Positions 4,896 through 56,290 of a DNA stretch of 64,000 nt are shown piece by piece. The position numbers were made by a program, and so were the translations under genes. The notes under the pieces were generated by a model that saw nothing but the letters and a program-made list of their open reading frames with translations, was not told where the DNA came from and made no database searches. Origin of the DNA: Blasia pusilla (lineage: Eukaryota); assembly GCA_050084515.1 (NCBI GenBank), contig CM114271.1, forward strand, positions 45,942,001 through 46,006,000. The letters are read 5' to 3'. Position 1 is the stretch's first letter; the number at the start of each line of letters is the position of its first letter.

Positions 4896-6039
4896 TACAC
4901 ACACCCATTGTTACATAATATATATCAATGTTCCCAACCGCACAATCGCACAACAGCATCATCAATCCTCATAATTTGCTGGAAGATTGGTACATCCATA
5001 TATGTATACAAAGATCATACAACCACCTAAAATGGCAATTAGGTCTATAAACTCAATATAGTACTTATCATATCGAGCATGATGTAACTCATTATTGTAT
5101 ATACATTTGGATCATCCAGTAGAAACTATGCCAAAATGAGGTATCAAGCATGACATATGTCACCATCTAACGAGCATCATAAATCAACATGGTGGTTAAA
5201 TTCCTCGTAGATCCATACAACATGCAACTCAAGCCCATACGTACAACAACCAATTTGGAAATCTTTAATCTACTCTCCCATCCACGTTTTGAACTATGAC
5301 ATAGCATACAATTATGCACATGATCCTTATAAACCATACCGCTTGCCTCTAACATAAGGACTCTAATGTAACACCTCTCGCACATACTTACATGCACAAC
5401 CTTCTAAAAGAAAATGAAAATCCTTTGAAAATTTCCTTAACAAGGCAAGTTAACTACCCACTTGCATACAAAAAAAAAAAACTTCCACTAGCTCCTCCTA
5501 CATCTTTCTCATGTAAAATCAAAGTAAAATCCATTTATACAATGAATTCCATTTTTCGATAGTACAAATCGTCATTAAGCAACATCTATCCCTATGATGA
5601 GAAAACCCGTACTCTTGCCGTACTCTAACATTATACCTCCATGCTCCTACCAATCTTATAAGGAAGAGTGTTTCTTAGGCTCAACATAAGAAATATGGCG
5701 TTTGAAGTCCATCTCTTCTTCTCACATACCCTTGAGAAGAGCCTACGATATAGTAGGACTTCCACTTTTCGACCGACTATAATGTGGCAAAGGTGATCAT
5801 GTGGATGTTATTCATATAGAATGAACTTTATGTTGGAATGTACTCTTTGATTGATATATGGCAAGTTTCAAGAAGAAAATCGGAGAAAGAGGGAGATGAA
5901 AATCTGCTAAAAATTTTTATTTGATTTCCCAAGGAAGTTGTATGGTTCATACAACTAAATTTTCCCTAATCTTAGAGCCCTAATTTAATTTGAGTTTTTT
6001 GCATGGTTTCAAATTGTGGGACAAGGCAAGTATCGTATA

Positions 6040-8904: not shown

Positions 8905-11900
8905 TATTATAAAATAAACCTCAAAAGAGGACGAAGAAAGGTAATAACATCTCCAAAGAGGAGTCAAAAAATGCATAGTGGAATGCAAAAAGAAAATGCC
9001 AACTGGCCAACGCAAACACCGACACAACGAGCTACACGATTGATAGCGTGAAACAAATATGACAAGAACACGAGTGGTTGGTCAGACGTGAATGGACGAC
9101 GAGGCGAGCGACCCCCCACCGCCTCCGCACGACGTATCAATGCCAAGGCTTGTGCACGTTGTAAGGCCACTGAGATGCATTGCCAAAAATAAGTGGTAAC
9201 TACATAGAGACAAGGACTACGGGAAGGGGCAAGGTAATGATTCTCGAGGGAGTGGTGAGCACATGTTTTCATGAAAGTATCAAAAAACACATCTGAATGA
9301 CCGAATACTTCCACTGCAAAAGGAATAAATCCATCAGTCACATGTCTCACAACATAACTTAACTCCTTGATTCTTGTTGCAGCTTCGACCGCCAAACCTT
9401 TGGTATGTTTGGCTCGACACACCAAGTCACAACGTGTTGGATTAGAAACCACCACATCACCTAGTGTCCGGAATCCACCTCGAGACATAACAAGATCCAC
9501 TCTCCGACAAGAGGTTGCTTGTGTGGTTGAAGGTAGGACATGGAGTTGCTCTTGCCCAACGGTGTATCCTGCAGTACGAGCCACCGATGCTACCGCCTCT
9601 CTAATGATATCATGTGTGGCCGTTCGTTCTTCAACATGAGCACATCAAAGAATATGGAGACCCTTCGCATCAATGGGATCCCCGCATACATAATTCGGCA
9701 CACCTAACAGAGAAGGATGTGGAAGTCCAAGGTGTAACCACAAAACTGTCGAGAATATACTTCGAGGAAGACGAAATGGAAGAATAAGAGGATTTGCAGT
9801 AAGCCACGCCCCAACTGCGGTACCCGCACATGAACCTAGACGAGGTCGATGAGCGTCAGAGGATGACTCAGAGAGAATGTTGGAAAACTTTATTTGATGC
9901 AGATTCTCGGAGATATGCTATTGAAGTCGATCAAGCCCTTCCGTAATCAATTGACTGAAAGGGGATAGAATTTCTTGTGAAGCAAAAGGAAGAAGAACTC
10001 GTGCACATCTCAGTTGTTGTTGAATAACACGTCACCCTCCTCTACATGGGCGACATGATCCATCCAGATAGGTGTATCTCCTTGGAGAAACCTTGAAGCC
10101 ATAATTGGTGCTACCAATACCCAACTCCCCAAAGAGGCTACGGGAGCAGATGCGATTGTAGAGGAAAGTCCCACCCCTTCAAAAGAAATAGGCAAGATAT
10201 CTTGTCGTGAAGACAAGACACCATCATCTCCCTCAAATGTATTCGGGCTAAGAAGTTGACCAAAAGTTGCCAAGATAGAAGTGTCAAAATAGGCCAACCG
10301 ATGTAAGAACCTTGAAGTGGGAGGACAACTGCAAAGAAGGTAGGAAGGACGTCGTAGAAAACATTGGGAGAGAATCCCATAAGCCACTTGGGAATCCCCT
10401 AGATGAGGTAACAAATGAAGCCATTCCACGTCTTTCAAAAGGGCCTCATCCAAGAACTTTGAGACATAGTCGATGAAGCCAATTGGGACCCCAATAACCC
10501 TAACCCCTTCAATGTAGATGGGAAAATCAGGAGTAGGTGGGTGAATTTTGAGGGAAGGCATGAAGGAGACCATACTCCACATTTACTAGGTTGGACTTTA
10601 AGGTTCAAGAAAGAGAGTTGCTCCACAAAATGGATATAAGCAGGAACCACTTCAGAAGGAGGACCTATAAAGTGAGTGTCATCAACAATAGAAGGGAAAA
10701 CACAAGATGGAAATGCTTGCGCTCATGCTCGAAAGGCACAAAAATGGGCAATGGCAAAATGTAGGGCGCCCATGGGATCACCTTGATGTGTGCCACATGC
10801 CGATTATAGGATACTATATTCCCCGGAGGTAGCATGATGAGAATAGATAATGGGAGTATCATAGGCATAGAAGGAGCAAACAAATGGAATGAGACAGGCA
10901 AGTTATTCTCTTGCACAACGTAACTCCTCAAAGATGGCCGCACGAGAAACTGAATTAAATGCGTTAGCCACATCGACTTAAATTGTTACACGCTTTGGAT
11001 GAATATCAAGAGTGGAGAGAATCCTATACACCACAGCCTCACAACCTCCAGGAGTTGCCACTCCAAATTGATGAGGAAATAAGTGGGCACTAAAGTGAGG
11101 ACAAAATTGCAAGCATAGGCATCGACTAACCAAGCGATATAAAACCTCTCCAATAGCCAAAGGGCAGACATCTAAAGGAGGCTTATCCATAGCCAACAAA
11201 TGACAAGCCCCTAAGAGCCTAGAGATAGAGAATGGGAGATGGCTTGTCGTAATATGTGCACACACCTTATATAGAGAGACAAAGCCACTTGTTGAATCTG
11301 CCGGGATAAAGCAATCAAGGAGATGCTCAAAAACCATCCCTGATAGTTTGCTTGCTAATAAGCGAGGATTATGAAGAAAAGCCCTTGTGAAAACCTCCAC
11401 GTCAAGCTCCAAGTCAAGGTCTCTTGTATAGTCTTCCACAAAAGGTGGAGCATCACCACTTAAAGAAGGGTGAAGAGCTTCTAATAGAGCCAATGTTTTC
11501 GCACTTGGAACTTCCAAAGAGAGAGGACCCAATGCTCATGTTGCACGTGAAAACTCACCAACGTGCCCCAAAAGTAGACTTCGTCAAAGGCGTTGTTGTA
11601 TTGAAGGCCTCCCATGATTGGCATGTTCAATGGGATGAGCCGCATGTAAGGCCTCTCCTCGAAGTACATGCTCATTCTGAAGATTATCCCAATCCCCAGA
11701 CATAAAGCGTTGAATGCGTGTGGAGGTTTCACGACGACCCGTCGCACCACCCCTTGGAGGGAGGACTAAAACCCAATGTGGGAAGAGTAATAGGAGATAC
11801 CAAGCATTGATATATGTGGGATCACGCGCTAACCTTTCTAATGGGAAAAGAAAATCTTGTTGGGTGATGGGGCGAAGAGCAATAGGAATGCGAGTGTAGA

Positions 11901-38576: not shown

Positions 38577-39137
38577 TGTTGGATTCTAAACATCCACTTC
38601 TCATTGTGCATCATTGATCTGATCGGCCCTCTTATATGAGTAAGGTTGCACACGAACAAAGTTTGCGCCCGCGGACATGTCCATATCTGTCTGAGCCTAG
38701 ATACCCGCGGCCCACACTCGAGCTCGAGCCCGTCCCTGGAGCCTGTAGCGTGCACCTAAGTTGGTGGAGCCCACAGTGGTTTTGTGGCCTGGGACCAGCC
38801 CCGCATAGGGCCCACACATGGCACGCTCCGTGCCCATGCATGGCGAGCGGGCAAGCCCTCCATGTGTGGGCCCAACACGAGCCTAGCCATGAGCCACAAA
38901 ATCGGTGCATGCTCGGCCAGCATGGGTGCATGCTATGGGCTCGGCGAACCCACATAACGCATGTGCTGGGCTAGAGCCTGCCCAATAGGGGCCCAACCCG
39001 CCATGAGCAGGCGTGGCCACGGGCCACAAAATTGGTGCGGGCTCGGCCAGCCTGGGTGCACATATGTACTAGTCCATTTTATATCCTCAAGATTTGTAAT
39101 ATATCTGAGAATTATTTTCATAGCCTCTTTTCTCACA
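38577..39137 (+). mobile_element. 5' LTR of a Ty1/copia element, interrupted and internally deleted
   Basis: Starts TGTTGGATTCT and ends TTTTCTCACA, like 61198-61632. It is followed immediately by a PBS. Confidence 0.8.
38641..39052. mobile_element. GC-rich hAT-type non-autonomous fragment inside the Copia LTR
   Basis: TAAGGTTGCACACG.. is reverse-complement homologous to 6270-6364. Confidence 0.75.
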
Positions 39138-39209: not shown

Positions 39210-40014
39210 ATGACTACTTCTTTGTTAGTTTGTGCTCATCCTTCTCCGCTAGGAGAAGGAAAGTTAGATGGGTATAACTATACATTGTGGAAGTTCAAAA
39301 TGAGAAATTTCCTCAATTATCTGGCATGGAATATTTTGAAGAATCGATATGAAATTAGGGACGAGACTCAAATTCAAAATTTGGAGAATCAACTTGCGTC
39401 CAAGAAATTTACAGAAGGATAAAGTGAGGAGCAATCTTTTACAAGGATCAAGAATCTTCAAGATTATATGACATCGGTAAGAATTTCAAAGCCTAGCAAA
39501 AATTTGGCACGTTGGTGCATAAAGTTTTTTCCTCCAAGATATGAAATTTTGGTCACAACTTTAAATACTCAAGTAAGACCTATACTGCTAAATTTTGAAC
39601 AATTTAGCGCAATGTTGGTTGAAGAGGAAATGCACTTCAAAGCAAGAGAGGGAAATGATGCCGCATTTATTGTCCACATAGAGAAAGATAGAAATCAAGA
39701 TTATAACTCAAATATCAAAAAGAAATTTCCAAAGAAAGCCTTCAAATGCTTCTATTATGGTGAAATAAGTTATCTTATCAAAGATTGTAGAAAGAGGAGT
39801 CAAGATGAGAAGGACGAGTATTTAAGACCTAGGAAGGAGTCTAGAAATTCTTTAGAACTAGAAGAACAGGAGATAGATGCTTAGATAGAAATCAAAGAGT
39901 TTTGCAAACAAGCTGAAAACCCCACCAAGTCAAAGAGTGAAGATGCATTGGTGCTCGATAGCGCAGCATCGGGACACATGATCACTCAGAAGGACTAGTA
40001 TAGCTCTTATCACA
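39210..40014 (+). pseudogene. Ty1/copia gag-protease pseudogene
   Basis: KLDGYNYTLWKFKM, PPRYEILVTTL, a decayed Zn knuckle CFYYGEISYLIKDC and protease VLDSAASGHM. It probably resumes at ~46520 (GIQGFHPIGRG) after the gypsy insertion. Confidence 0.85.
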
Positions 40015-40399
40015 TCTTTTAGGATAGATCTGTGAGATCTAGTAGAGTGCCTTGCAAGTAGTGGAGAATAGGCTCAGGAGGTTGAGAATGACATGTTGAG
40101 GCCCTGGGAAACCTGAGAGAGCAGATTTCTCCTTTGTTTCGGCTCATTTGGAGCCATATTGAGGAAGTTATTATTTGTAGGTAAGTACAATTTTGAGTAT
40201 ATGGTCAACTTTCTATTTTTGGTAAGTGGCCCTTGACCTCCTACATCAGGTCAAAAGCCAAGGAGGTGACTTGGGAGCATAGGTTACCATGGAAAGAGCT
40301 TGGGAGAAGGGAGGGGTATACCTCAAGGAGAGAGCTTGAAAGCTCATTCTCTCTTTGTTGAACCTCTTGGCATGAGGCGGCAAAACTATGGTCTTGCCC
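40015..40399 (+). repeat. 5' LTR of the gypsy element, 3' part deleted
   Basis: TTTTAGGATAGATC..GGTCTTGC is colinear with 45875-46220. Confidence 0.85.
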
Positions 40400-40989
40400 A
40401 GACAGAGGTCGCCGTAGTTGTGACGCGTGGAGTAATCGTAGAGTTGGATCCATAGCGAGGGGAAGCTAGGAAACAGACCAGGCTTCCTCAGTCTTTCATG
40501 TTGTCCAAGGCGATGAGGACCCCATCGATGGGTCCTGATCAGAGTTCTCGGAGAGTTGGTGATGTTATTGGTATGCAAGCACGGAGGAAAATGTGAGAAA
40601 TGCGTGCGACGACTCCTATTGTTGATGCTCAGGAGGAGCATGTATCGAGTACGATGTTGGGGGCGGCCACGATGGTTTACTATGCTCCACTATTTTCTAC
40701 TTCCGATGTTATGACATTGGGAGGTACGCCCGCCGAGGTGTTCCGACTAGCCGCTACGCTATGTGAGCGTGGAGTTGGAGTTCCTGCATCATGTTTAGAG
40801 GTGATTGCAGTGGAGGTGATGGACCTGCCCTTGGAGTATATGCTCGGGCCGTCCACGTCAGATTCATGGCAGGCTGCGGATGCTAGGATGGCAGAGATAC
40901 CCGCTAGAGCCGCGATAGAGCGTGCCATGGCTTTTCCTGGTGTTGTGTTGCTAGATAATTGAGGAGAGGTCTTCCAATTGGTGAGTCCC

Positions 40990-41320
40990 GGAGGTAGAGC
41001 TTTTAATCCGCAATGCGTCTTGTTGGATTCAGGAGCGCAACCCCTAATGTTGGGGAAAGCGTCATTCAGAGGATTGGGCTTGACGAGAGCCGATATGGAG
41101 TGTTGTTCATTCCGGATACAGACTTCCTTGGGTGGAGCAAGTATCACCTAATATATCACCCGACATGAGGTTGTGGTGAGGATTCGCCTGCGATATCCTA
41201 CAAATGAGTCCATGGTGCGAGCCAAGGCGATAGTGACTAATGCATGGTCCTACGACGTCTTGGTTGGTGGAGCAATGTTATACCCGATGGGGTTGTCCCT
41301 GGATTACTGGGAGGAGTCAA
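40990..41320 (+). pseudogene. Retroviral-type aspartic protease
   Basis: VLLDSGAQPLMLGK (Asp codon 41026-41028), IQTSLGG and YDVLVGGAML. Confidence 0.85.
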
Positions 41321-41739
41321 CGTCCTAAAGACCAAGATGGCAGTCAGGTGATGGGCACCTTAGCTCATTACCCGTTTGATTCACAAGTGCAGTGATCGAG
41401 CAACGACCAGGAGAGATGGAGACCTTAGCAACATTTTGCAATGCCATCACTTGGCCTAGTGATTTGATTAAGGGATATGTCCATGCAGAGGATACTCCCA
41501 TTCTTGAAATTTCTATGGAGAGGAGTGTTATGGTAGCCGCATGAGTCTGTGGAGGAGAGGTGCCGCTTTACGGCTTGACTGAGGAGCTTCGACGCTTAGC
41601 CATTGAGCATGTGCAAACCGCGTGGAGCGAGACATTTGCACAAGAGTATGACAGATCAAAGGAACCCCATGTAGGCAAGAGTGCCGCTATGACCCCTTTG
41701 GACACCACCCCCATTGAGTGGTGCATCCCAAAGGAGGGT

Positions 41740-42658
41740 ATTGGGGTGTTGGATCTTTTTGGAGGGATCAACACTAGGTTAGCTGCTGTTTTGCATGCTA
41801 GAGTGCGCATGTAGTAGTACTTGTATGTGTAGATTGATGATGTTGCGAGGCGCGCTTCACTTTACCATGTGGCGCAGTTACGCCTATGTTTTCCCAACTT
41901 ATTGTCTACGTCCGCCATTCAGGGTTACCAAAGTTCCCTACTGAGAGACATTTCATCGGTGGGGGAGCACGACTTGGAGCGGGTAGGGACCATAGACTTG
42001 GTCATTTCTCATTGGCCAAGTTAGGGCCAGTAGAGTGCTAACGGGGTAGCAGTTTAGCTGACTCTTGGTCGAGGTTGCTTTTGGAGATGATGCAGATCTT
42101 CCGACACTTGCAGGAACATCGTCCTCTAGCATACATTCTGTAGAATGTACCAATTTTGGGCGATTGGAGGTCCCGTGTGGTGACGAGTGCACATCATGTG
42201 TGTGCATGGATCGGCCCAAAAGTTTTGTTGGATGCGGCGAGTGTGGGTTCACGAGCACATTGCCTGCGTCTTTGATGGACCATTTGGTAACACACGAGAT
42301 GTTGCGGAGGGCATATGTGAGAGTGGAGCGCCCCTCTAATTTGTTGGTGGATTCTATATTGGATCCGGGCCGTCGATCACGCGCAGTGAGGCACGATGAT
42401 CGATCTCCGTTGACTATGGTCAACAGGATTGGCATGCCACGGGCAACCTTTCCCATATTGGTGATTTTTCCCGCTTCCTATGCATTCAAGGAGGCCGGAT
42501 CTGGCTTGGTTTGGGATGACCAGGTACAGAGGTTGGTGGAGCCCAACGCCGATGAGCAAGAGCGAGCAATGGGATTCCCCATTGGAGTGACCGTAGTATC
42601 GTCACTATCAGAGGCATCACGACGTCATGTCTTGGGTCAGGCGATGGATCTGAACTGA
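41740..42658 (+). pseudogene. DNMT3-like C5 cytosine methyltransferase domain within gypsy pol
   Basis: Motif I VLDLFGGI (41746-41769, same frame as the protease). II YLYV*ID. IV IDLVISHWPS*G (41992-42027). V LADSWSRLLLEM. VI YIL*NVP (42132-42152). VIII DAASVGSRAHCLRL*WT (42231-42281). IX-X EQERAMGFPIGVT..RRHVLGQAMD (~42554-42649). Confidence 0.85.
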
Positions 42659-43149
42659 TTGACATGGATTTTCAGCTTAGGAGTAGCCGAGCAACGTTGT
42701 TTGAGGATGCGACAGATCACAATAGTTGCGTTGGTGAGCCCCATGCTTACCGAGATGGTTGAGGCAGTGGCTAGGGGCGAGACCCGAGGAGATCGACACA
42801 CCAAGGGTGATTGGGAGGGACACCCTTGGACTTCTTGGGATGTTTTCACGTATGCTAGGAGATGGTAGCCACAACATTGAGCGTGGTTCCAGGTACTGCA
42901 AATGGAGATCCGATTTTGCAGTTGGCTGGAGGGGAACAATTGAGTTTTGTTGTTTGAGATGGGGTTGCACCATAGCAACCACCGACACCCGCATTGGAGA
43001 GTCCTACCATGGTCACGATGGAGACTTGGGAGCCAGATATGGGCCCTAAGTTGACAGGAGAAGAGCGGCGCCAGATAAAATAGTTCCTTAGGAGTTATAG
43101 GAGTTGTTTTGTATTTAGCATGCATGATTTGGATACGTTGAAGGATCAC

Positions 43150-44225
43150 GGATCTGCATTGAGTTATCGAGTGACACGCCAATCTTTCGAAGACCCTACA
43201 AGTACAATGATTTGGAGAGGGATAGGATTCAGAGTAGGAGCCAAGACTTGGTCAGAGCAGGACTAGTGGAGATGTCCTATGGGCAATATGCGTCTACCAC
43301 TCTCATGCCCGCCTAGAAGGATGTGCATGGCAATTGGACGGATAGGTGGATGTGTGGAGATTACCAACCTATCAATTGGTGGACAAAGTCCGATATGTAT
43401 GCCATGCCCACCCTTGAGGCAATTTGATGTGATTGGGCATGCAAAGGTATTCAGTTCATTGGATTTGCGAGCCGGATACCATCAGCTGCCTATAAGATTG
43501 GAGGATAGGCAGAAGACGACATTTTGGGGCATCGATCCTCACGGGAAGTATTGTCTGTACCAGTGGCGGTTCTTACCATTCGGGTCATGGATAGGATCTT
43601 GGCAGGTCTGGATTTTGCTAGATGTTATATTGATGTCATCGTAGTCTTTAGCGCCACGGTTGAGGAGCATGAGCAACATCTAGATGAGGTGTTTTGACGA
43701 TTGCACTTACATGGGGTGAAGCTACATCCAAGCAAGTTCAAGTTCTTCTACGACCAGATTGAGTACTTAGGTCATACGATACACCCATGGGGCCTTGGTG
43801 TGCAGCTGATGAAGGTAGAGGCTATTTCACTCATTCCACGCCCTACAGATTTGAGCCGAGTCCCTGCATTCATGGGATTGGAGAACTTCTATCCACAATA
43901 CGTCAAGGGTTTCACCTCGATTTTGAAGCCACTGATCTTGCTGACCAAGGTGGATCAGGAGTGGCATTGGGGGGATGAGCAAGAGAGTATAGCTCGTATG
44001 AGGGTGAGTGCTTGGATGCAGTGTGGGTTGTCGTACATTTCAGATGTTATCTATTCGGCAATCCCTTTACCATCATTATTGATCATTAGCCACTTAAGTG
44101 GTTGATGGAGTCCGACAAGCTCACAGGGAAGTTTGCAAGGTGGGCTCTTTTGTTGCAGGAGTATGACTTCCAGGTGGTGCATAGACCTGAGATGCTCAAC
44201 CAGGATGCAGATGGTTTGAGCCATA
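43150..44225 (+). pseudogene. Gypsy reverse transcriptase and RNase H (with deletions)
   Basis: RWMCGDYQPIN, FSSLDLRAGYHQL, YQWRFLPFG, CYID, IEYLGHTI, YEGECL and ARWALLLQEYDF..DADGLS. Confidence 0.95.
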
Positions 44226-44439
44226 ACTCATGCCCGAGTTAGCGAGATGCGAGTGGAGCTTGTTGGCATGGTGAGAGTGATGAGGAGTCGGTGCCACGAT
44301 GGCATGAGTTAGCCTTTTTGGGCTTGTTGGCTATGGAGAGCCAGATTGTTGAGACTTTGATGGCGAGGTCTGATGGAGAGTCCTTAGATCCAGAGGCCGG
44401 TGAGGAGACGATAGGTGATCGAGACATTCACGACGATGA

Positions 44440-45420
44440 AGTTCAATAGTTTGTTGTGAGATGTATGGTGTGTGATCGAATCCGAGCATCGTTCAATGCT
44501 CTCTAACTCCACAGTTGCATCCCCTTGTGATCATAGGTTTAGGTTATAGATAGAGTTTGGATTTTGCAGGACCTTTGCCTTTGACGGAGCGCCATAGTCG
44601 TTATGTGTAGGTGATGGTCGAGCACTTCTCAAAGTGGATAGAGTTGGTTGCATTGCCTGACAAAGCGAGTGAGGGAGTAGCGTATGCCTTCCTAGATCAA
44701 GTGCTGAGTCATCACGGTGCACCAGTTGAGGTGTTGATACACCAGGGTACAGAGCTTCATGGGGAGTTTCACGCCTTGTGTGATGAGGCACTGATCGACC
44801 ACCGCACCACTTCGCGAGATCATCTTGAGGCGGAAGGACTAGCAGAGAGGGTTGTGCAGACGGTGAAGATAGGATTATGCAAGTATGGCTTGTAGAGAGG
44901 TCATCTAGGATATTGGGACCTTCAGTTGGCGTGGTTGGCGATGGGATACAAATTCAGCAGGCAGACATCTTAGCGTCTTTCTCACCGTACTTGCTGCTTT
45001 ACGGCCGTGAGCTAGATTTACCTGCAACCCTTCGTGGAGATGTTGGTGAGATGTTGAACCTTGATGACCCTGATGTATGGATGAGAGCATGTTCATAAAG
45101 GGTTGAGTTGTTCCGGAGAGTGATGCCCATGACATTTGAGAACTTGGCGATTGCGCAACATCGAGACACATTGAGGTATGTGACTATTCAAGGTGTGATT
45201 ATCGACCTACTATCCGGAGGTTTCATCAAGGAGACTATGTCTACTTGGTGAGACAATACCCATGACATTGGATGTGACTACACGGTTCACCATCTTGAGA
45301 ATGCGTGAGGTTTTGCCATCACATGTTCTCTTATTGGACGGACGTGATGGTATGGTTTGGAAAGACTATGTGCGTAACTGTGGGCCGTGTCACCTTCCAA
45401 ACATTGACGGTAAAATTTAT
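44440..45420 (+). pseudogene. Gypsy DDE integrase
   Basis: CMVCDR, LDFAGPLP, VEHFSKWIE, HQGTE and EGLAERVVQTVK. Confidence 0.9.
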
Positions 45421-45453
45421 CCGAGCTTAGCAGTAGTTCTTGTAGGCTTGCGA

Positions 45454-45588
45454 TGTATGTTGTGTGGTTATGGCCGTGGTGCAGCCACTATGCTAGTCTG
45501 TGATGGATGTTCGAGAGGATGGCATATGGCATGTTTGACGCCACCTCTCACTAGGGTTCCTCAGGGAGGATGAATATGTCCCATATGT
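45454..45588 (+). pseudogene. PHD finger (C4HC3) at the integrase C-terminus
   Basis: CMLC..[32 protein letters not shown]. All eight ligands are present, and the conserved Trp position is a TGA. Confidence 0.9.
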
Positions 45589-45874
45589 ACAAAGAGTAGA
45601 TAGTTCTACATTCCGACTTATGTCTGTGATATGGATGAAAAGAAGGCGATTAATGATGGGGCCACATGAGCAACCGACCTTCTTGCTCTTAGCGTCCTAG
45701 AGATGTATGTCATGGTAGGTAGGAATAGATGGCTATCTGGAGTTAGAGGGACCTAACCATCAGCTAAGGGCGATTGGAGATATTTTGGTACTTCTTGTCT
45801 TATTTTTTGGATGCCATGAGTTAGCATGGGATAGGGCGTGTTTTGTGTGTGTGTTCGGTGACAACGATGTTTGT

Positions 45875-46475
45875 TGTTTTAGGATAGATCGGTGAGATCT
45901 AGTAGAGCGCCTTTGCGAGTTGTGGAGGATAGGCTTATGAGGTCGAAAATGACCTTCGTTTCGATTCATTTGGAGCCATATTGAAAAACTTACTATTTTA
46001 AGTAAGTACCATTTTGAGTATATGGTCGAATTTGAATTTTTGGTAAGTGGTCCTTGACCTCCTACATCAGGTCAAGAGCCAAGGAGGTGACTTGGGAGCA
46101 TAGGTTACCATAGACAGAGCTTGGGAGAGGGGAGGGGAATTCCTCAAGGAGAGATAGTTTGAGAGCTCATTCTCTCTTTGTTGAACCTCTTGGCATGAAG
46201 AGGCCAAGCTATGGTCTTGCTTGCCTTGTGTGTGTAACTGAAGACTCTCATTAGGAGAGTGGGTTTGGTTTGACATTGAGAGAGATATGTGAGAGTGCAC
46301 ACATTTGAGAGCCATGGTGTTGAGAGAGATTGGATCTCGATTTAATTGGAGATATTTTGGTACTTCTTGTCTCGTTGTTTGGATGCCATGAGTTGGCATG
46401 GGATCGTGCGTGTTTGTGTGTGTGTTCTGTAACACCGATGTATGTTGTGTAGCGATGTGTATGCGCACCACACTC
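45875..46475 (+). repeat. 3' LTR of the gypsy element
   Basis: Starts TGTTTTAGGATAG and is homologous to 40015-40399 and to the solo LTR at 54856-55501. Confidence 0.85.
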
Positions 46476-48078
46476 GTGACAGCCTATGCAGGAGCCCATC
46501 GTCGTCGGGCGTTGTCGCATGGAATACAAGGTTTCCATCCAATTGGAAGAGGTCACGAAGAAGTAGATTTCAATTTTGGATAAGGTAAAATCACAAATGG
46601 AGAGACAAAACAAGACGCTATGAGCGCTCATGGATATGGTATCTAAAGTCACTTCACTTGACATACATGGTGCATCCAAGCCAATTTTCAATAGTCTAGT
46701 TGTAGAGTCAACTCCATCCTCTGATGGAGATCCTAAATCAGGTAAGCTACTCTTATGGTTTTCTTTGTGCCATTGGGAATTCTTGGGTGGATGTTCTTTG
46801 AATGTAGTACATAACTCTTACATAGGAAACATGGTCTTCTACTCTAACTATGACTATGAAATAACACAAAATATCATGAACATCATTCAAACCACGTGTC
46901 TTCATACTTTCAAACTTTGTCATACATGTGCTATGCTACTAAATTTGGAATTATATGTAATGGATGCAAGAAAAGACAAGATTGACTCTCCTCCGATTTC
47001 TAATGCAGAAGAATGGTTAGGACTAAAGGCATGGGTTCAGCTCATAGTGATGATGATCAAGGCACTACATACTCCACACTTAAGGAGTTCAATCAAGGTT
47101 GCACGGATACGAACAAGTCCAGATATGACCACGGACATGGAAAACCGATCGTAAGCCCAATTTCTTTGGCGCTCTTGTCGACCGTGTGGGCTTAGATGAA
47201 GGGTGCGGGCTAAAGGCAAGCCACATACGCGACGTGGGCTAAGGGTGGGCTCCCTCACGTGCCTAGCGGGTTGGGAGAGGGCCTAGGGCGGGCCATGCAT
47301 GCTCAGTGGGGGCACCCGCGCGGGCTTGTGGGCTAAGGTGGGTTGAAGGCGGGCAGAGAGCGCGCCAAGTGCGGGCCTGGCGCGGTGGGGGGCGGGCCAT
47401 GCACAAGCTTGCAGGCCTAGTGGGCTGCGTACGGGCCAGACGGGCTAGAGACGGGCTTGGTGTGGGCCTCCTGTGGGTCGAGGGCGGGCTAGGGGGCAGG
47501 CCTATCACGGGATTGGCGTGCTACGTACGAGTGGAGGGCAGGTTGGGGGGCGGGCCAAGGGCGGGATGGGGGTTGGGCTTGTAGGCCTATCGCGGGCCTA
47601 GCAGTATGGGGGTTGGCCTGGCAGGCCGAGGGCGGGCCTGGTGCGGGATGGGGGGCAGGCCAAGCGCAAGCTTGTGGACCGAGGGCGGGCTAGGCGCACG
47701 CTTGCAGGTTAACAACCCACCCGTGAGTAGGGTTATTGTAGTAGAGAATATGTTAGTTAGAAATGAGATTAATTGAAAAAATGGGGATAGTATAGGTGGA
47801 GATAGGAAGGAGAAGGTTAAAATAGAATTGAATGGGGCGATTGTATTGGAAAATAGGTTAGTTGGAAATAAAAGTAGGTAAAGAAGTTAGGATAGATGAA
47901 AAAGGAATCGGATATGAACAAAAAAGTACATTTGCTAAATGCTAATTAATGGAAATGGTTTAGTAATAAATTGTAAGTGGAGGGGATAGACGATTTGGGG
48001 AGTTAGAAGGGTTCATTCTCTTCCTTCCATCCTCCCCTATATAAACTTGCTCATTTTTATATACCCTCACAATCTCAT

Positions 48079-53141
<5,063 letters not shown>

Positions 53142-53499: not shown

Positions 53500-56290
53500 A
53501 ACATCGGGAAGAAGTACAAATGGAAGGTGGAACATCAAGCAAATGACAATGTAAGTTTTATTTCTATTGTATGAAAACCTATCATAGCACAGAGATGATG
53601 GAGCATTTTACACGAGAGAGACAAAAGACAAAGGATGGGAATCATAGTATCCATCATGCCAAATTATATGTGAAGGTCTTTCCTAGTGTGCAACGGGATT
53701 TCCGAAATAGGGAACTTGTGGGAAACGGAAAAAGAAGGGAAGCGAGACCCTCGAGTGAAGTGGAGGAGACAACGCCATTACAAATAGGTTCGCAACAGAC
53801 ATGACATAGTATTTATGTTATGTCAAATATTAGTGGGGTTGCGGACATACCACCGTGTGACAGTCTCGAGGAATGAAGAGGAGTTGTTGGGCCTATTCAA
53901 GGGACTAGTAGTTTTGGGAAGAAGCAAGCCAATCTGAGGGATTCTTTCAACACGCACGGAATAGAAGTTACAAATGACATGTGGGCAAAGTGTTTCTACG
54001 AATGTGGAATACCATTCAATATAGTAAGGCAAGATGCTTTCAAACATACTGTGTTGGAAATAAAAAAAGGGTTTCTCAGGTCCTAGTTACAATTCGTTGC
54101 TCACCATCCCACTTGAGAAACATATGGAGAAGGTGAAGGAAAAGGTAGATGACATATTGGATAATTTGTATTTGGGGGCCACGATCATCACGGATTCTTG
54201 GACCAATGTGAGGAGTGAGTCTTTAGTGAACATCATGGTCTCGTGTCCACAAGGTCAGATCATGAATGAAGCATACATAGCAACTTGAGTATTGTTTAAC
54301 GGACATACACACATTTCATCATACACCTACACCAGATCCATAGGTGATATTGAAGTCACTTTACAAAGGAAAAAGGGGAAAGGTGTAGTTATAAATATCC
54401 ACATTGAGATCTGAGACGAGTAGCTAGAAAAGCCCTACTCTGCCAATGAGTAGAAGCACAGTAAGGTGCAAATTATCATGTGCATCGGTCCAAAGAATGT
54501 GTTGCAACTTGTTACAGTCATTGCTAGCAATGAGCAAGCACTAGGAAAACTTATTGTAGCAAAGTTTCCTCATATTATTTGGGATGGATGCGTATCAAAT
54601 TCTTTTGATCTAGTGTGCAAAGAGCGGGGTAAATGGCCTTGGATGGACATGATTTTTGCACAAACTCGTGAGATGGTAGTATTTGTGAGGACTAGAACTT
54701 GGGTGATGGCCAAATTCATGGAAACCAATCCAATAAAGAGACAATTTTTGTTTCATATAAACACACGTTTTGCCAAAAACTTTATCATGTTGGGACGTGT
54801 CTAAGAGTTGAGGGAGGCATTCCATACTGTGGTTACCACAAATGCTTTTAGGATGTGTTTTAATGGGAGGGATGCGAGGTGTAGTGCGCATACATGTCGC
54901 AACACAATATACATCGTTGTCACCAAACATACACACAAACACGCACAATCCCATGCTAACTAATGACATCCAAACATCAAGACAATAAATACCAAAATAT
55001 CTCTAATAAATCACGTGGATATCTCCATCACAAGGTCTCACAACTCTCTCTCTCTCTCTTATGTCAAACCAAACCCACTCTACTAATGAGAATCTTGGGT
55101 TATGCACACAAGGCAAAGAGGACCATAACTCCGTCGCCTCATGCCAAGAGGTTCAACAAAGAAGAATGAGCTCTCAAGCTCTCTCTCTTTGAGGCATACC
55201 ACCTTTCCTCTCCCAAGCTCTCTCCACGGTAACCTATGCTCGTAGGTCATCTCCTCAACTCTTAACCTACTGTACGTAGTGGGGCAAGGGTCACTTTCTA
55301 TAGTGGAAAGTCAAATATACCAAAAACAAAAACTTACCCAAAATAGTAAATTACTCAATATGGCTCCAAATGAACCGAAACGAAGGGGAAATGTGCTCTC
55401 TGAGATTATCCAAGCCCTCAACCAATCATCCTCGACCTTCTAAGGCTCTCCTCCGGTATCTCCAAAGGCTCTCTACTATATCTCATCTATCTATCCTAAC
55501 AAATGTGATAGGGGCAAAGGGAGAAGGTATGAGAGATTGAGACTATTGTGGCCAATCACGATTTTTGGATAGAAGGTGAGGAGTTATTTGCTGCGGCTTT
55601 TCCAACTATTATTCTATTGAGAGAGTGTGATGGTCATAAAGAAATGATGAGGCATATTTATCGCCGTATATTTGAGATAATATAAGAGACTAGTGCTTTT
55701 CCTGTAATTCCATGGCCCGGTATGGGTGGAAGGCGTCATGGCTTTTTCTAACAATGTCCAAAGCTATAGAAATGGTTTGTGTTATTTCTCGACGGTGGGC
55801 AATTATCCACAATAAGTAATATGCAATAGGCTACATTCTCGCCCCTTATAATCTTATTGATAGTGTTCAAGATGTCACTTCAAATGCTGAAAGCATGAGA
55901 GATTTCAAACAATATCTGAAACTTTATGCAAAGGGGGTGTATGGCCTCAATGTCATCGAGGCTAATTCTTATGTTGATACTTGTTTCCGAGAGTTGGGCA
56001 ACATTGTGAACCATCAGGAACTATTTGTGGATGAGTTTGACAGGGAAGTTGTCTATTCACTTGGCCCCTCTAATTGGTGGAGCATGCATGGTGAAGGTGC
56101 ACCAACATTGGGATCTGTGGCTAAGTCCATATTACCACAAGTAGTTGCTTCTTCTTCAGTGGAGAGAATTGAAGTAGTTATGGTTTATCCACAACAAGGA
56201 TAGGAATAAATTGACAACAAGCATACCGGGGATTTGGTGTACATATACACAAAAACTCAAGGTTTTGAGACAAGGGTGTTTCTCGGAAAT
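53500..56290 (+). pseudogene. hAT transposase pseudogene (DUF659-type core and C-terminal dimerisation domain)
   Basis: CFYECGIPFN, TIITDSWTN, IGPKNVLQLVT, IIWDGCVSNSFDL, TRFAKNF and NWWSMHGEGAPTLGSVAKSILPQVVASSSVER. Confidence 0.92.
54856..55501 (-). mobile_element. Solo LTR of the DNMT-gypsy family inserted in the hAT transposase
   Basis: The reverse complement starts TGTTAGGATAG and ends AAAACA, colinear with 45875-46475. Flanks GATG/AATG. Transposase coding sequence continues on both sides. Confidence 0.88.

Follow-up and report, generated by a model that had tools for sequence, protein, structure and literature searches.

A PHD finger at the integrase C-terminus of a decayed Ty3/gypsy element from a DNA methyltransferase-bearing family

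A dead Ty3/gypsy copy that ends in a PHD finger

The window, by which we mean the whole 64,000-nucleotide stretch of Blasia pusilla DNA analyzed here, holds a dead copy of a Ty3/gypsy-type element at about 40017 to 46448 on the forward strand (Table 1). This copy is a long-dead relic with no function today; many stops interrupt it, and gag and the zinc domain of the integrase are gone. Searches with intact relatives (tblastn) recover a colinear series of domains from about 40396 to 45600, namely protease (PR), DNA methyltransferase (DNMT), reverse transcriptase (RT), RNase H, integrase (IN), a beta-rich C-terminal domain, and a PHD finger. The Ty3/gypsy order PR-RT-RNaseH-IN is found in the window copy by colinear tblastn alignment with the relatives P0203, P0013, and P0007. 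The Pfam signals for RVT_1 and rve are weak in the window copy and strong in relatives.

Table 1. Features of the decayed element and of related fragments in the window (positions count from the first nucleotide of the window)
Feature	Position	Strand	Basis
5' terminal repeat A1	40017..40397	+	blastn against 45877-46220, 79.7% over 384 columns; ends inspected
gag end and aspartic protease region, dead	40396..41400	+	tblastn with P0183 and P0203; LLDSGAQ motif
Cytosine-5 DNA methyltransferase region, dead	41700..42690	+	colinear tblastn with P0183, P0190, and P0203
In-frame TAG followed by CAA CCA, ORF1/ORF2 junction	42973..42981	+	homology to the junctions of L030 and L037
Reverse transcriptase, dead	43128..44000	+	PF00078; P0013 residues 31-337 align (tblastn)
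RNase H-like domain, dead	43985..44437	+	tblastn with P0007 residues 81-251, 53% identity
Integrase	44438..45194	+	catalytic core 44560-44814; PF00665 rve, E 8.9e-7, 29.5 bits
Integrase C-terminal beta-rich domain and CxPCHLP linker into the PHD finger	45200..45453	+	tblastn with P0007 residues 596-680
PHD finger, C4HC3, last pol domain	45454..45588	+	PF00628; eight ligands invariant in 35/35 aligned relatives
In-frame TGA within the PHD finger, conserved-Trp column	45571..45573	+	translation; family alignment
TAG ending pol, 3 codons past the last Cys	45598..45600	+	translation; protein end ...ICPICTKS, preceded by the TGA
Short repeat B1, abutting A2	45773..45877	+	89.5% identity to 46345-46448 over 105 columns
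Repeat A2, 3' copy of A1	45877..46220	+	blastn
Repeat B2 and element 3' end	46345..46470	+	blastn, sequence inspection; match to B1 at 46345-46448
Second, more decayed family fragment (end of integrase C-terminal domain and PHD finger)	5110..5400	-	tblastn with P0007 residues 637-695, E 7e-7
Solo terminal repeat, isolated A-x-B unit	54901..55510	-	blastn, 76-85% identity to A1/A2 and B1

Residues 435 to 977 of the Marchantia protein P0183 align to 40396-42030, its first ~434 gag residues remaining unmatched, and P0203, whose protease starts at residue 663, aligns from residue 644 at 40918 (both by tblastn). No Pfam match was obtained for the protease region when the decayed copy was scanned, and the read-through frames of the methyltransferase region yielded no Pfam family. 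In the latter region, motif I can still be read (VLDLFGG), stops occupy the PCQ and ENV positions, and the frame changes twice. The reverse transcriptase gives one PF00078 match at 43620-43781 (E 5.6e-10, 39.7 bits) and another, below the cutoff, at 43432-43632 (E 7.7e-6). The RNase H-like domain corresponds to the part of P0007 (residues 81-251) that carries PF17917/PF17919 in relatives. About 90 integrase residues have been deleted, including most of the H2C2 zinc domain (P0007 is unmatched from 251 to 342 in tblastn), and the rve match to the remaining core falls under the PF00665 cutoff of 32.6 bits. The integrase C-terminal domain has five strands with high pLDDT in the predicted model, and P98, C99, and P102 of the linker that follows it are nearly invariant in alignment A1.

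The terminal repeats are split, in the layout A1 - coding - B1-A2-(gap)-B2 (blastn). The same A - coding - B-A-B layout is found in L006, an independent full-length locus, with A at 1676 and 10350 and B at 10238 and 10693. No direct repeats were found in L030 and L037, the two most intact relatives, whose contigs probably end inside the elements. Repeats A1 and A2 are only 79.7% identical and B1 and B2 89.5%, which indicates that the window insertion is old. Similarity of repeat A1 to other copies may start about 14 bases before 40017. The 5' flank of the element is a copia-type gag remnant (PF14223, 27.8 bits), and the 3' flank, from 46450 to 49900, contains no Pfam family in any of three frames; nesting in a copia element is thus supported on the 5' side only, and this insertion context, a single case, says little on targeting. 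In the second family fragment (5110-5400), most Cys codons have changed, and its DNA is 74% identical to 45280-45580.

The one-frame translation of 45199-45599 contains a C4HC3 PHD finger with all eight zinc ligands. The earlier note had claimed a complete C4HC3 pattern ending pol at 45454-45588, and the ligands lie at exactly these coordinates, with the TAG that closes pol three codons on. It had also proposed a search with the PHD model PF00628, and this search gives a match to residues 86 to 130 of P0001 (E 9.5e-9, 35.6 bits) that spans the whole model (1-47 of 47) and exceeds the gathering cutoff of 24 bits. The PHD finger of the window is therefore confirmed as an observation, with the proviso that the finger of this copy is broken. 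The tryptophan two residues before the seventh ligand is absent from the window copy, where a TGA codon takes its place. Tryptophan occupies this column in 176 of 187 family PHD segments and is nearly invariant, as W160, in alignment A1, and its absence is a property of the dead window copy, not of the family. The 85 codons directly 5' of the finger, which code for the last part of the C-terminal domain of the integrase, are stop-free and in the same frame. Farther upstream, tblastn with intact relatives shows that the frame shifts five times or more from RT to PHD, so that in the window copy the finger is in frame with the integrase only locally. Pol also ends soon after the finger elsewhere in the family, 1 to 24 residues past the PHD in relatives of the window type and 2 to 13 residues past it in the 20 loci whose PHD ORF is intact.

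Conservation of the PHD finger across the family

The PHD finger at the integrase end is the normal, selected design of the whole DNMT-bearing family and not a quirk of one copy. When the 133-residue read-through was used as query, a word-indexed search returned 10 longer proteins (E 1e-47 to 4e-29), with named members from Marchantia polymorpha and Sphagnum fallax, and a PHD is precomputed in nine of them. An exhaustive HMMER search returned 4175 cluster representatives at E <= 1e-3, of which 570 reach E <= 1e-10. Among the top 150, most have alignments that span the C-terminal domain as well as the PHD, and the PHD follows rve/H2C2 in all 38 long representatives scanned. Marchantia, Sphagnum, and metagenome contigs yield intact relatives whose RT, RNase H, IN, and PHD lie in this order within one ORF. 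Shorter proteins preserve the end of this series, as in P0007 (728 aa; RNaseH-H2C2-rve-PHD, with its stop three residues past the finger) and in P0003 and P0009 (rve-PHD), and the 2358-residue P0203 carries PR-DNMT-RT-RNaseH-IN-PHD in a single ORF.

We surveyed copies in 80 related metagenome loci, which are not copies within the host genome. A complete PHD stretch is present in 52 of these loci by alignment; it is in frame with the preceding domain in 50 of the 52 and stop-free in 49. Among the remaining loci, 16 are cut by the contig end before the finger and 12 have no PHD or a split one. When a strict C4HC3 regular expression is used, all eight ligands fall within an ORF of at least 100 aa in just 20 of the 80 loci, from which we conclude that most copies are dead; the alignment-based count is the better measure of PHD presence. 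Among the outcomes that the earlier note had named as speaking against its proposal were a PHD that is out of frame in intact copies and one that is missing from most copies; the survey found the finger in the majority of loci and nearly always in frame. The dN/dS ratio of the PHD is 0.04 between L030 and L037 and 0.05 between L030 and L038, compared with about 0.03 for RT, RNase H, and the IN core, the ratios being rough because dS is near saturation in these comparisons. By this measure, purifying selection maintains the PHD as strongly as it does RT and the integrase core. What sequence comparison establishes for the finger is where it lies, that it is conserved and selected, and its family resemblance.

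The finger directly follows the integrase C-terminal domain in the window copy and in relatives, which agrees with the proposal of the earlier note that it stands where chromoviruses carry a chromodomain; the replacement of a chromodomain that the note's wording implies would be a further, putative step. A scan for the chromodomain itself (PF00385) gave no match in P0001 or in 51 long relatives (38 + 13). In the ESM Atlas, the top match is a cluster of 80 IN-PHD proteins (score 0.95) for which few taxa are recorded, Mollusca being the commonest; we regard this match as a lead only.

The DNA methyltransferase and the junction between the reading frames

A cytosine-5 DNMT is found in the same element family as the PHD finger, and the co-occurrence that the earlier note suggested checking is thereby borne out. 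PF00145 is present in relatives colinear with the window copy, at residues 964-1027 of P0183, 460-529 of P0190, and 953-1137 of P0203, and also in ORF1 of L030 (51 bits) and in L037. The DNMT motifs FxGxG, PCQ, ENV, and RxR are intact in intact members. In elements of the window type, the DNMT follows PR and precedes RT, with a conserved in-frame TAG downstream of it, and it is separated from the PHD by about 1200 residues that include RT, RNase H, and IN.

L030 and L037 each have one in-frame TAG between ORF1 (gag-PR-DNMT) and ORF2 (RT-RNaseH-IN-PHD). ORF1 and ORF2 of L030 are 1369 and 1047 aa long and share the same frame. The codons at the junction are TAG CAG TTA in L030, TAG CAA TCA in L037, and TAG CAA CCA in the window. 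An ORF2-start anchor was available in 49 sequences (48 loci and the window), and an in-frame stop lies just upstream of it in 46. This stop is TAG in 34 of the 46, mostly followed by CAA CCC or CAA CCA, and TAA followed by one of the same two codon pairs in 6 further sequences; the strict pattern TAG-CAR-YYA occurs in 6 of the 34 TAG sequences. The TAG-CAA junction resembles a TMV-type leaky-stop context.

In functional members, this arrangement gives gag-PR-DNMT from ORF1 and, past the TAG, RT-RNaseH-IN-PHD from ORF2. With the TAG conserved, the more plentiful product would have the DNMT but no PHD, and both would be present only in the predicted readthrough product. The idea of the earlier note that one mobile polyprotein combines a histone reader with a DNA methylation writer consequently holds for a readthrough product only in the window copy, in L030 and L037, and in 34 of the 46 loci with an upstream stop, where a TAG splits the two; P0203 has both in a single ORF. 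The broader idea that reader and writer belong to one element fares better, in that PHD and DNMT do co-occur, but the comparison with DNMT3 does not extend to their arrangement. A gap of about 1200 residues with three enzymes in between gives a geometry unlike that of the ADD-DNMT3 cassette.

A wider, chlorophyte-type group of more distant relatives shares 40-50% identity over the C-terminal domain and PHD and has the order RT-RNaseH-DNMT-IN-PHD. Its named chlorophycean members come from Haematococcus, Tetrabaena, Chlamydomonas (including a Chlamydomonas reinhardtii protein), Volvox, Pleodorina, and Chromochloris. Among the 120 chlorophyte-type relatives listed, PF00628 is precomputed in 118 and PF00145 in 27, and the spacer between RNase H and IN is homologous to the DNMT-bearing one in 93 of 96 proteins of at least 1500 aa. 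These relatives have a tail of 100 to 400 residues past the PHD. We considered the possibility that this tail is the DNMT and rejected it, as the DNMT-like spacer always precedes IN. In eight of eight post-PHD tails of 300 to 400 aa tested, no Pfam family beyond PHD-like models was found at E <= 0.1.

The chlorophyte and bryophyte types of DNMT align over their full length, lineage-specific stretches included, an alignment that would fit one origin and later rearrangement. We can tentatively extend this to a broader scenario, which we consider possible, with the odds against it as a whole. An old Ty3/gypsy lineage of chlorophytes and streptophytes, including bryophytes, may have carried an integrase-fused PHD reader and a catalytically intact DNMT writer since before these groups split, and the DNMT alone may have moved, so as to lie between RNase H and IN in one type and between PR and RT in the other. 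A leaky UAG would set the product ratio in the bryophyte type, the PHD would place copies via the H3 tail, and the DNMT would methylate DNA to the element's advantage.

Gypsy elements with a DNMT are already known in the streptophyte Klebsormidium as KnitGypsy-Dnmt3 (de Mendoza et al. 2018, PMC5890265), and "Gypsy-DNMT3" of streptophytes is named again in a recent preprint (bioRxiv 10.64898/2026.05.21.726589). As described in the text of PMC5890265, KnitGypsy-Dnmt3 resembles our family in having a cytosine-5 DNMT inside a gypsy-type coding region, under purifying selection and with key residues kept, and in a DIRS-like A - coding - B-A-B layout, which we also find in the window and in L006. 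The host is different, being Klebsormidium there, while the relatives named here are from Marchantia and Sphagnum. The main text of PMC5890265 contains no mention of a PHD or a chromodomain, and one text supplement has none of the terms PHD, PF00628, KnitGypsy, and chromo; Figure 4c of the paper may show the domain order. A second comparison is offered by the EpiLTRs, LTR elements of Cymbomonas and Euglena with DAM, DNMT, and chromodomain (bioRxiv 10.64898/2026.05.21.726589). According to the searchable text of that preprint, these likewise join a DNA methyltransferase and a histone-reader-type domain within a single LTR retrotransposon. They differ in having a chromodomain as reader, an additional adenine methyltransferase, and a DNMT that is reported to be sister to DNMT4.

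Possible histone binding and integration targeting

The closest solved sequences to the finger, among the best 60 PDB matches (E 3e-14 to about 3e-7), are CHD4, PHF12, KMT2C/D, DPF3, ATXR5, KDM5, PHF21A/BHC80, KAT6A, BAZ2A/B, UHRF1, and AIRE; no entry for ING, BPTF, or TAF3 is among these 60. The AlphaFold model of the relative P0012, made from an alignment of 35, has a mean pLDDT of 78 and exceeds 90 over the finger. The finger of this model superposes on the PHDs of ATXR5-H3, DPF2/3, and UHRF1 at 0.7-0.8 Å, and the fold matches overall have an rmsd of 0.7-1.3 Å over 47-53 residues at 34-41% identity. Foldseek ranked the two-domain unit of integrase C-terminal domain and PHD beside the Tudor-PHD cassettes of PHF1, MTF2, and UHRF1, at an rmsd of 13-15 Å and a TM of ~0.27; these matches show a shared domain order only, not a shared arrangement.

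We take the nearest solved PHDs to be mostly readers of an H3 tail that is unmodified or not trimethylated at K4. The family resembles H3-tail PHDs such as those of CHD4, DPF3, ATXR5, PHF21A/BHC80, KDM5 (PHD1), UHRF1, and AIRE in its C4HC3 spacing, its L-L-C-D strand, and its P-x-G-x-W-x-C-P-x-C loop. Both an M-L-L/V-C-D strand and the P-x-G-x-W loop are conserved in the family PHD segments, and in solved structures this strand and loop hold the H3 N-terminus. Between the second and third Cys, the wider family has an acidic cluster, with D, D, and E at positions 8 to 10 in 92, 73, and 85 of 187 segments, respectively. Such a cluster contacts H3 R2/K4 in fingers of the DPF3/BHC80 type. In the bryophyte subfamily, including the window copy, neutral or basic residues replace it, and the ligand may therefore differ there. 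The solved H3-tail PHDs differ from the family in this loss of the acidic R2/K4 residues from the bryophyte subfamily and in belonging to host chromatin proteins, not to integrases.

Our preferred explanation, which we think probable, is that the window feature is a PHD ending the integrase of a decayed Ty3/gypsy element, from a DNMT-bearing family of the green lineage, and that in this family the PHD tethers integration to chromatin via the H3 tail. The PHD, lying directly past the beta-rich C-terminal domain of the integrase, would bind the N-terminal tail of histone H3 on nucleosomes. Once bound, it would hold the integration complex to chromatin of a particular state, in the way that a chromodomain serves chromoviruses, and so bias where new copies land. 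The ligand would most likely be an H3 tail not trimethylated at K4, as the closest solved PHD fingers belong to that class; this is the weakest step of the model. We infer both histone binding and integration targeting from the position of the finger and its family resemblance, and the steering of integration and marking of new copies put forward in the earlier note are putative in the same way.

Several reports provide a context for this model. Chromoviruses are Ty3/gypsy elements that carry a chromodomain (Gao et al. 2008, as cited in PMC6673714; bioRxiv 10.64898/2026.05.21.726589). Like them, the window family has a small domain of chromatin-reader type at the very C-terminus of the integrase, with a proposed tether to a chromatin state, but the domain is a PHD zinc finger and not a chromodomain. 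PHD domains have been noted in CR1 LINEs (Kapitonov and Jurka 2003) and REM1 (Perez-Alegre 2005), both as cited in PMC6673714 and PMC8557442, and in other Chlamydomonas transposable elements (PMC9940879, PMC8557442). The DNA transposon Ginger1-9_HM has a gypsy-like integrase with a C-terminal PHD (PMC2836005). Gypsy-7a_cRei, an active Chlamydomonas element, encodes a polyprotein with a PHD, and its new insertions are intergenic 2.6 times more often than expected (PMC9940879). In the legend of that paper the PHD stands between RH and INT and may therefore be placed differently from the PHD of our family; we compare the two by description only. As far as the searchable text of these reports goes, they have in common with our family a PHD as an accessory transposon domain, sometimes beside a gypsy-type integrase, for which the authors suggest chromatin-related target choice, and they differ in that PMC9940879, PMC8557442, and PMC2836005 mention no DNMT for the same element. 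PHDs in retrotransposons and Gypsy-DNMT3 elements are thus each already in print. We found no searchable full text in which one retrotransposon has both a PHD and a DNMT, or in which the PHD/DNMT gypsy family is reported from bryophytes; the pairing may already be drawn in figures or supplements.

Other explanations for the finger have to be weighed against integration tethering. That the stretch is Cys-rich by chance, an assembly artifact, or a host exon captured by one copy might be suspected from the state of the window copy, which is badly decayed and has a stop within the PHD, but this idea is refuted, and we give it practically no credence. The Pfam score lies above the gathering cutoff over the whole model, the independent window fragment at 5110-5400 has the same junction of C-terminal domain and PHD, and the PHD recurs in the 38 long relatives, in 52 of 80 loci, and in hundreds of database proteins (the 570 HMMER representatives). 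A zinc finger with a non-histone role, such as contact with a host protein, with nucleic acid, or with the particle of the element, nuclear import, or integrase stability, deserves more attention, and we judge it unlikely. It could account for the loss of the acidic patch from the bryophyte subfamily and for a finger in which no aromatic cage is evident; strong conservation would suit any essential function, and the conserved CxPCHLP just upstream may indicate a larger unit specific to the family. The best sequence and fold matches, however, are all PHDs that bind the H3 tail, and the strand and loop that hold the H3 N-terminus in those proteins are conserved.

In line with the reader-and-writer idea of the earlier note, the finger might instead serve the element's own DNMT, reading the H3 tail as an ADD domain does and directing or licensing methylation of new or resident copies. 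We consider this improbable. The presence in one family of the PHD and a DNMT with its catalytic motifs intact speaks for it, as does the mark that the nearest solved PHDs mostly read, H3 unmethylated at K4, which is the same as that of ADD. In the chlorophyte type, moreover, the DNMT directly precedes IN-PHD, as seen in the spacer of 93 of 96 long proteins and in the PF00145 matches of 27 of the 120 listed, so that a DNMT-IN-PHD protein is conceivable there. In the window type, by contrast, the DNMT is in ORF1 and the PHD ends ORF2, with the conserved TAG, RT, RNase H, and IN between them, and protease processing, which is usual in such elements, would part the two further. In all architectures seen, the finger stays attached to the C-terminal domain of the integrase, while the position of the DNMT varies. 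A role in the service of the DNMT is thereby weakened in the window type and less so in the chlorophyte type, and integration tethering remains the explanation that we prefer.

Family members may still be expressed in the organism of the window. Three RNA runs gave 101, 158, and 129 reads that match conserved patches of the element, almost all of them 95-99% alike. Since 80-85% of the matched reads leave the window sequence and continue in a different one, the reads stem from related copies and not demonstrably from the window locus; read depth over the bin that contains the PHD (45425-45641) is at most 1.35. TAG CAA CCA is present in one loose-end consensus of these reads. Together, the reads suggest that family members are transcribed in this organism.

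The textbook example of a transposon that chooses its landing site by reading chromatin is the gypsy element with a chromodomain. Intact members of the PHD-bearing family exist in Marchantia-like and Sphagnum-like genomes, and with the matching RNA reads this makes the idea testable in tractable bryophytes. The window result is in itself ordinary, because the locus is a dead copy. The design that this copy records is real and selected, and is best seen as a variation on kinds already known. If our model is true, the PHD finger would be a second, independent solution to chromatin reading, in elements that have their own DNA methyltransferase.

Repeat layout and surroundings of the element

The decayed Ty3/gypsy-type element in the window, whose integrase ends in a PHD finger, shows a DIRS-like split of its terminal repeats despite its gypsy-type proteins. 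We found this arrangement twice, in the window copy and in an independent full-length metagenome locus, L006. The same combination of split repeats and gypsy-type proteins is described by de Mendoza et al. (2018; PMC5890265) for KnitGypsy-Dnmt3, a DNMT-carrying element from Klebsormidium, which the window element and L006 resemble in this respect.

Two further pieces of the family lie in the window. One is a very decayed fragment, 74% identical to the main copy, with TAT at most of the Cys codons, which is the pattern expected from C-to-T decay. The other, an isolated A-x-B repeat unit, is probably a solo terminal repeat.

The gypsy-type element may be nested inside a copia-type element, a gag remnant of which lies directly 5' of it; Pfam gave no match on the 3' side (46450-49900, three frames). 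The two GC-rich stretches flanking this block may be inverted repeats of another element. Their translations appear to be mirror images of each other.

Features of the element, its relatives and its flanks
Feature	Position (window unless stated)	Strand	Details
Family fragment	5110-5400	minus	integrase C-terminal domain and PHD
GC-rich stretches	38600-39000; 47100-47700		either side of copia/gypsy block
Copia-type gag remnant	39243-40010		PF14223, zinc knuckle, LDSAASGHM protease start
Split terminal repeats	40017-40397, 45773-46470; L006 1676-1975, 10238-10805		A - coding - B-A-B
In-frame TAG junction	42973-42981; L030 5083-5091; L037 4661-4669		between gag-PR-DNMT and RT-RNaseH-IN-PHD
C-x-P-C-H-L-P motif	about 45385-45420		columns just before PHD, alignment A1
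(CT)n microsatellite, long	48060-48180		
A-x-B repeat unit	54901-55510	minus	

A conserved stop between the coding parts

In the window copy and its two most intact relatives, L030 and L037, the two coding parts share one frame and are divided by a conserved TAG, followed by CAA or CAG and then by CCA, CCC, TTA or TCA. Among the 46 loci with upstream stop, 34 carry TAG at the junction and six fit TAG-CAR-YYA strictly. This context is similar to a tobamovirus-type leaky stop. TAG CAA CCA also occurs at the junction in RNA reads from the host organism, in the loose ends of the reads.

PHD linker and chlorophyte relatives

Family-wide, across the 35 sequences of alignment A1, a near-invariant C-x-P-C-H-L-P bridges the PHD and the C-terminal domain of the integrase. 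A large chlorophyte gypsy group (P0177, P0205, P0070 and about 90 further proteins) has the domain order RNase H, DNMT, integrase and PHD, followed by a tail of 100-400 residues that matches no known family. The DNMT of P0177 contains PCQ and ENV motifs. Precomputed Pfam marks PF00145 in only 27 of the 120 chlorophyte-type proteins listed, so the DNMT of these elements is mostly overlooked by routine annotation.
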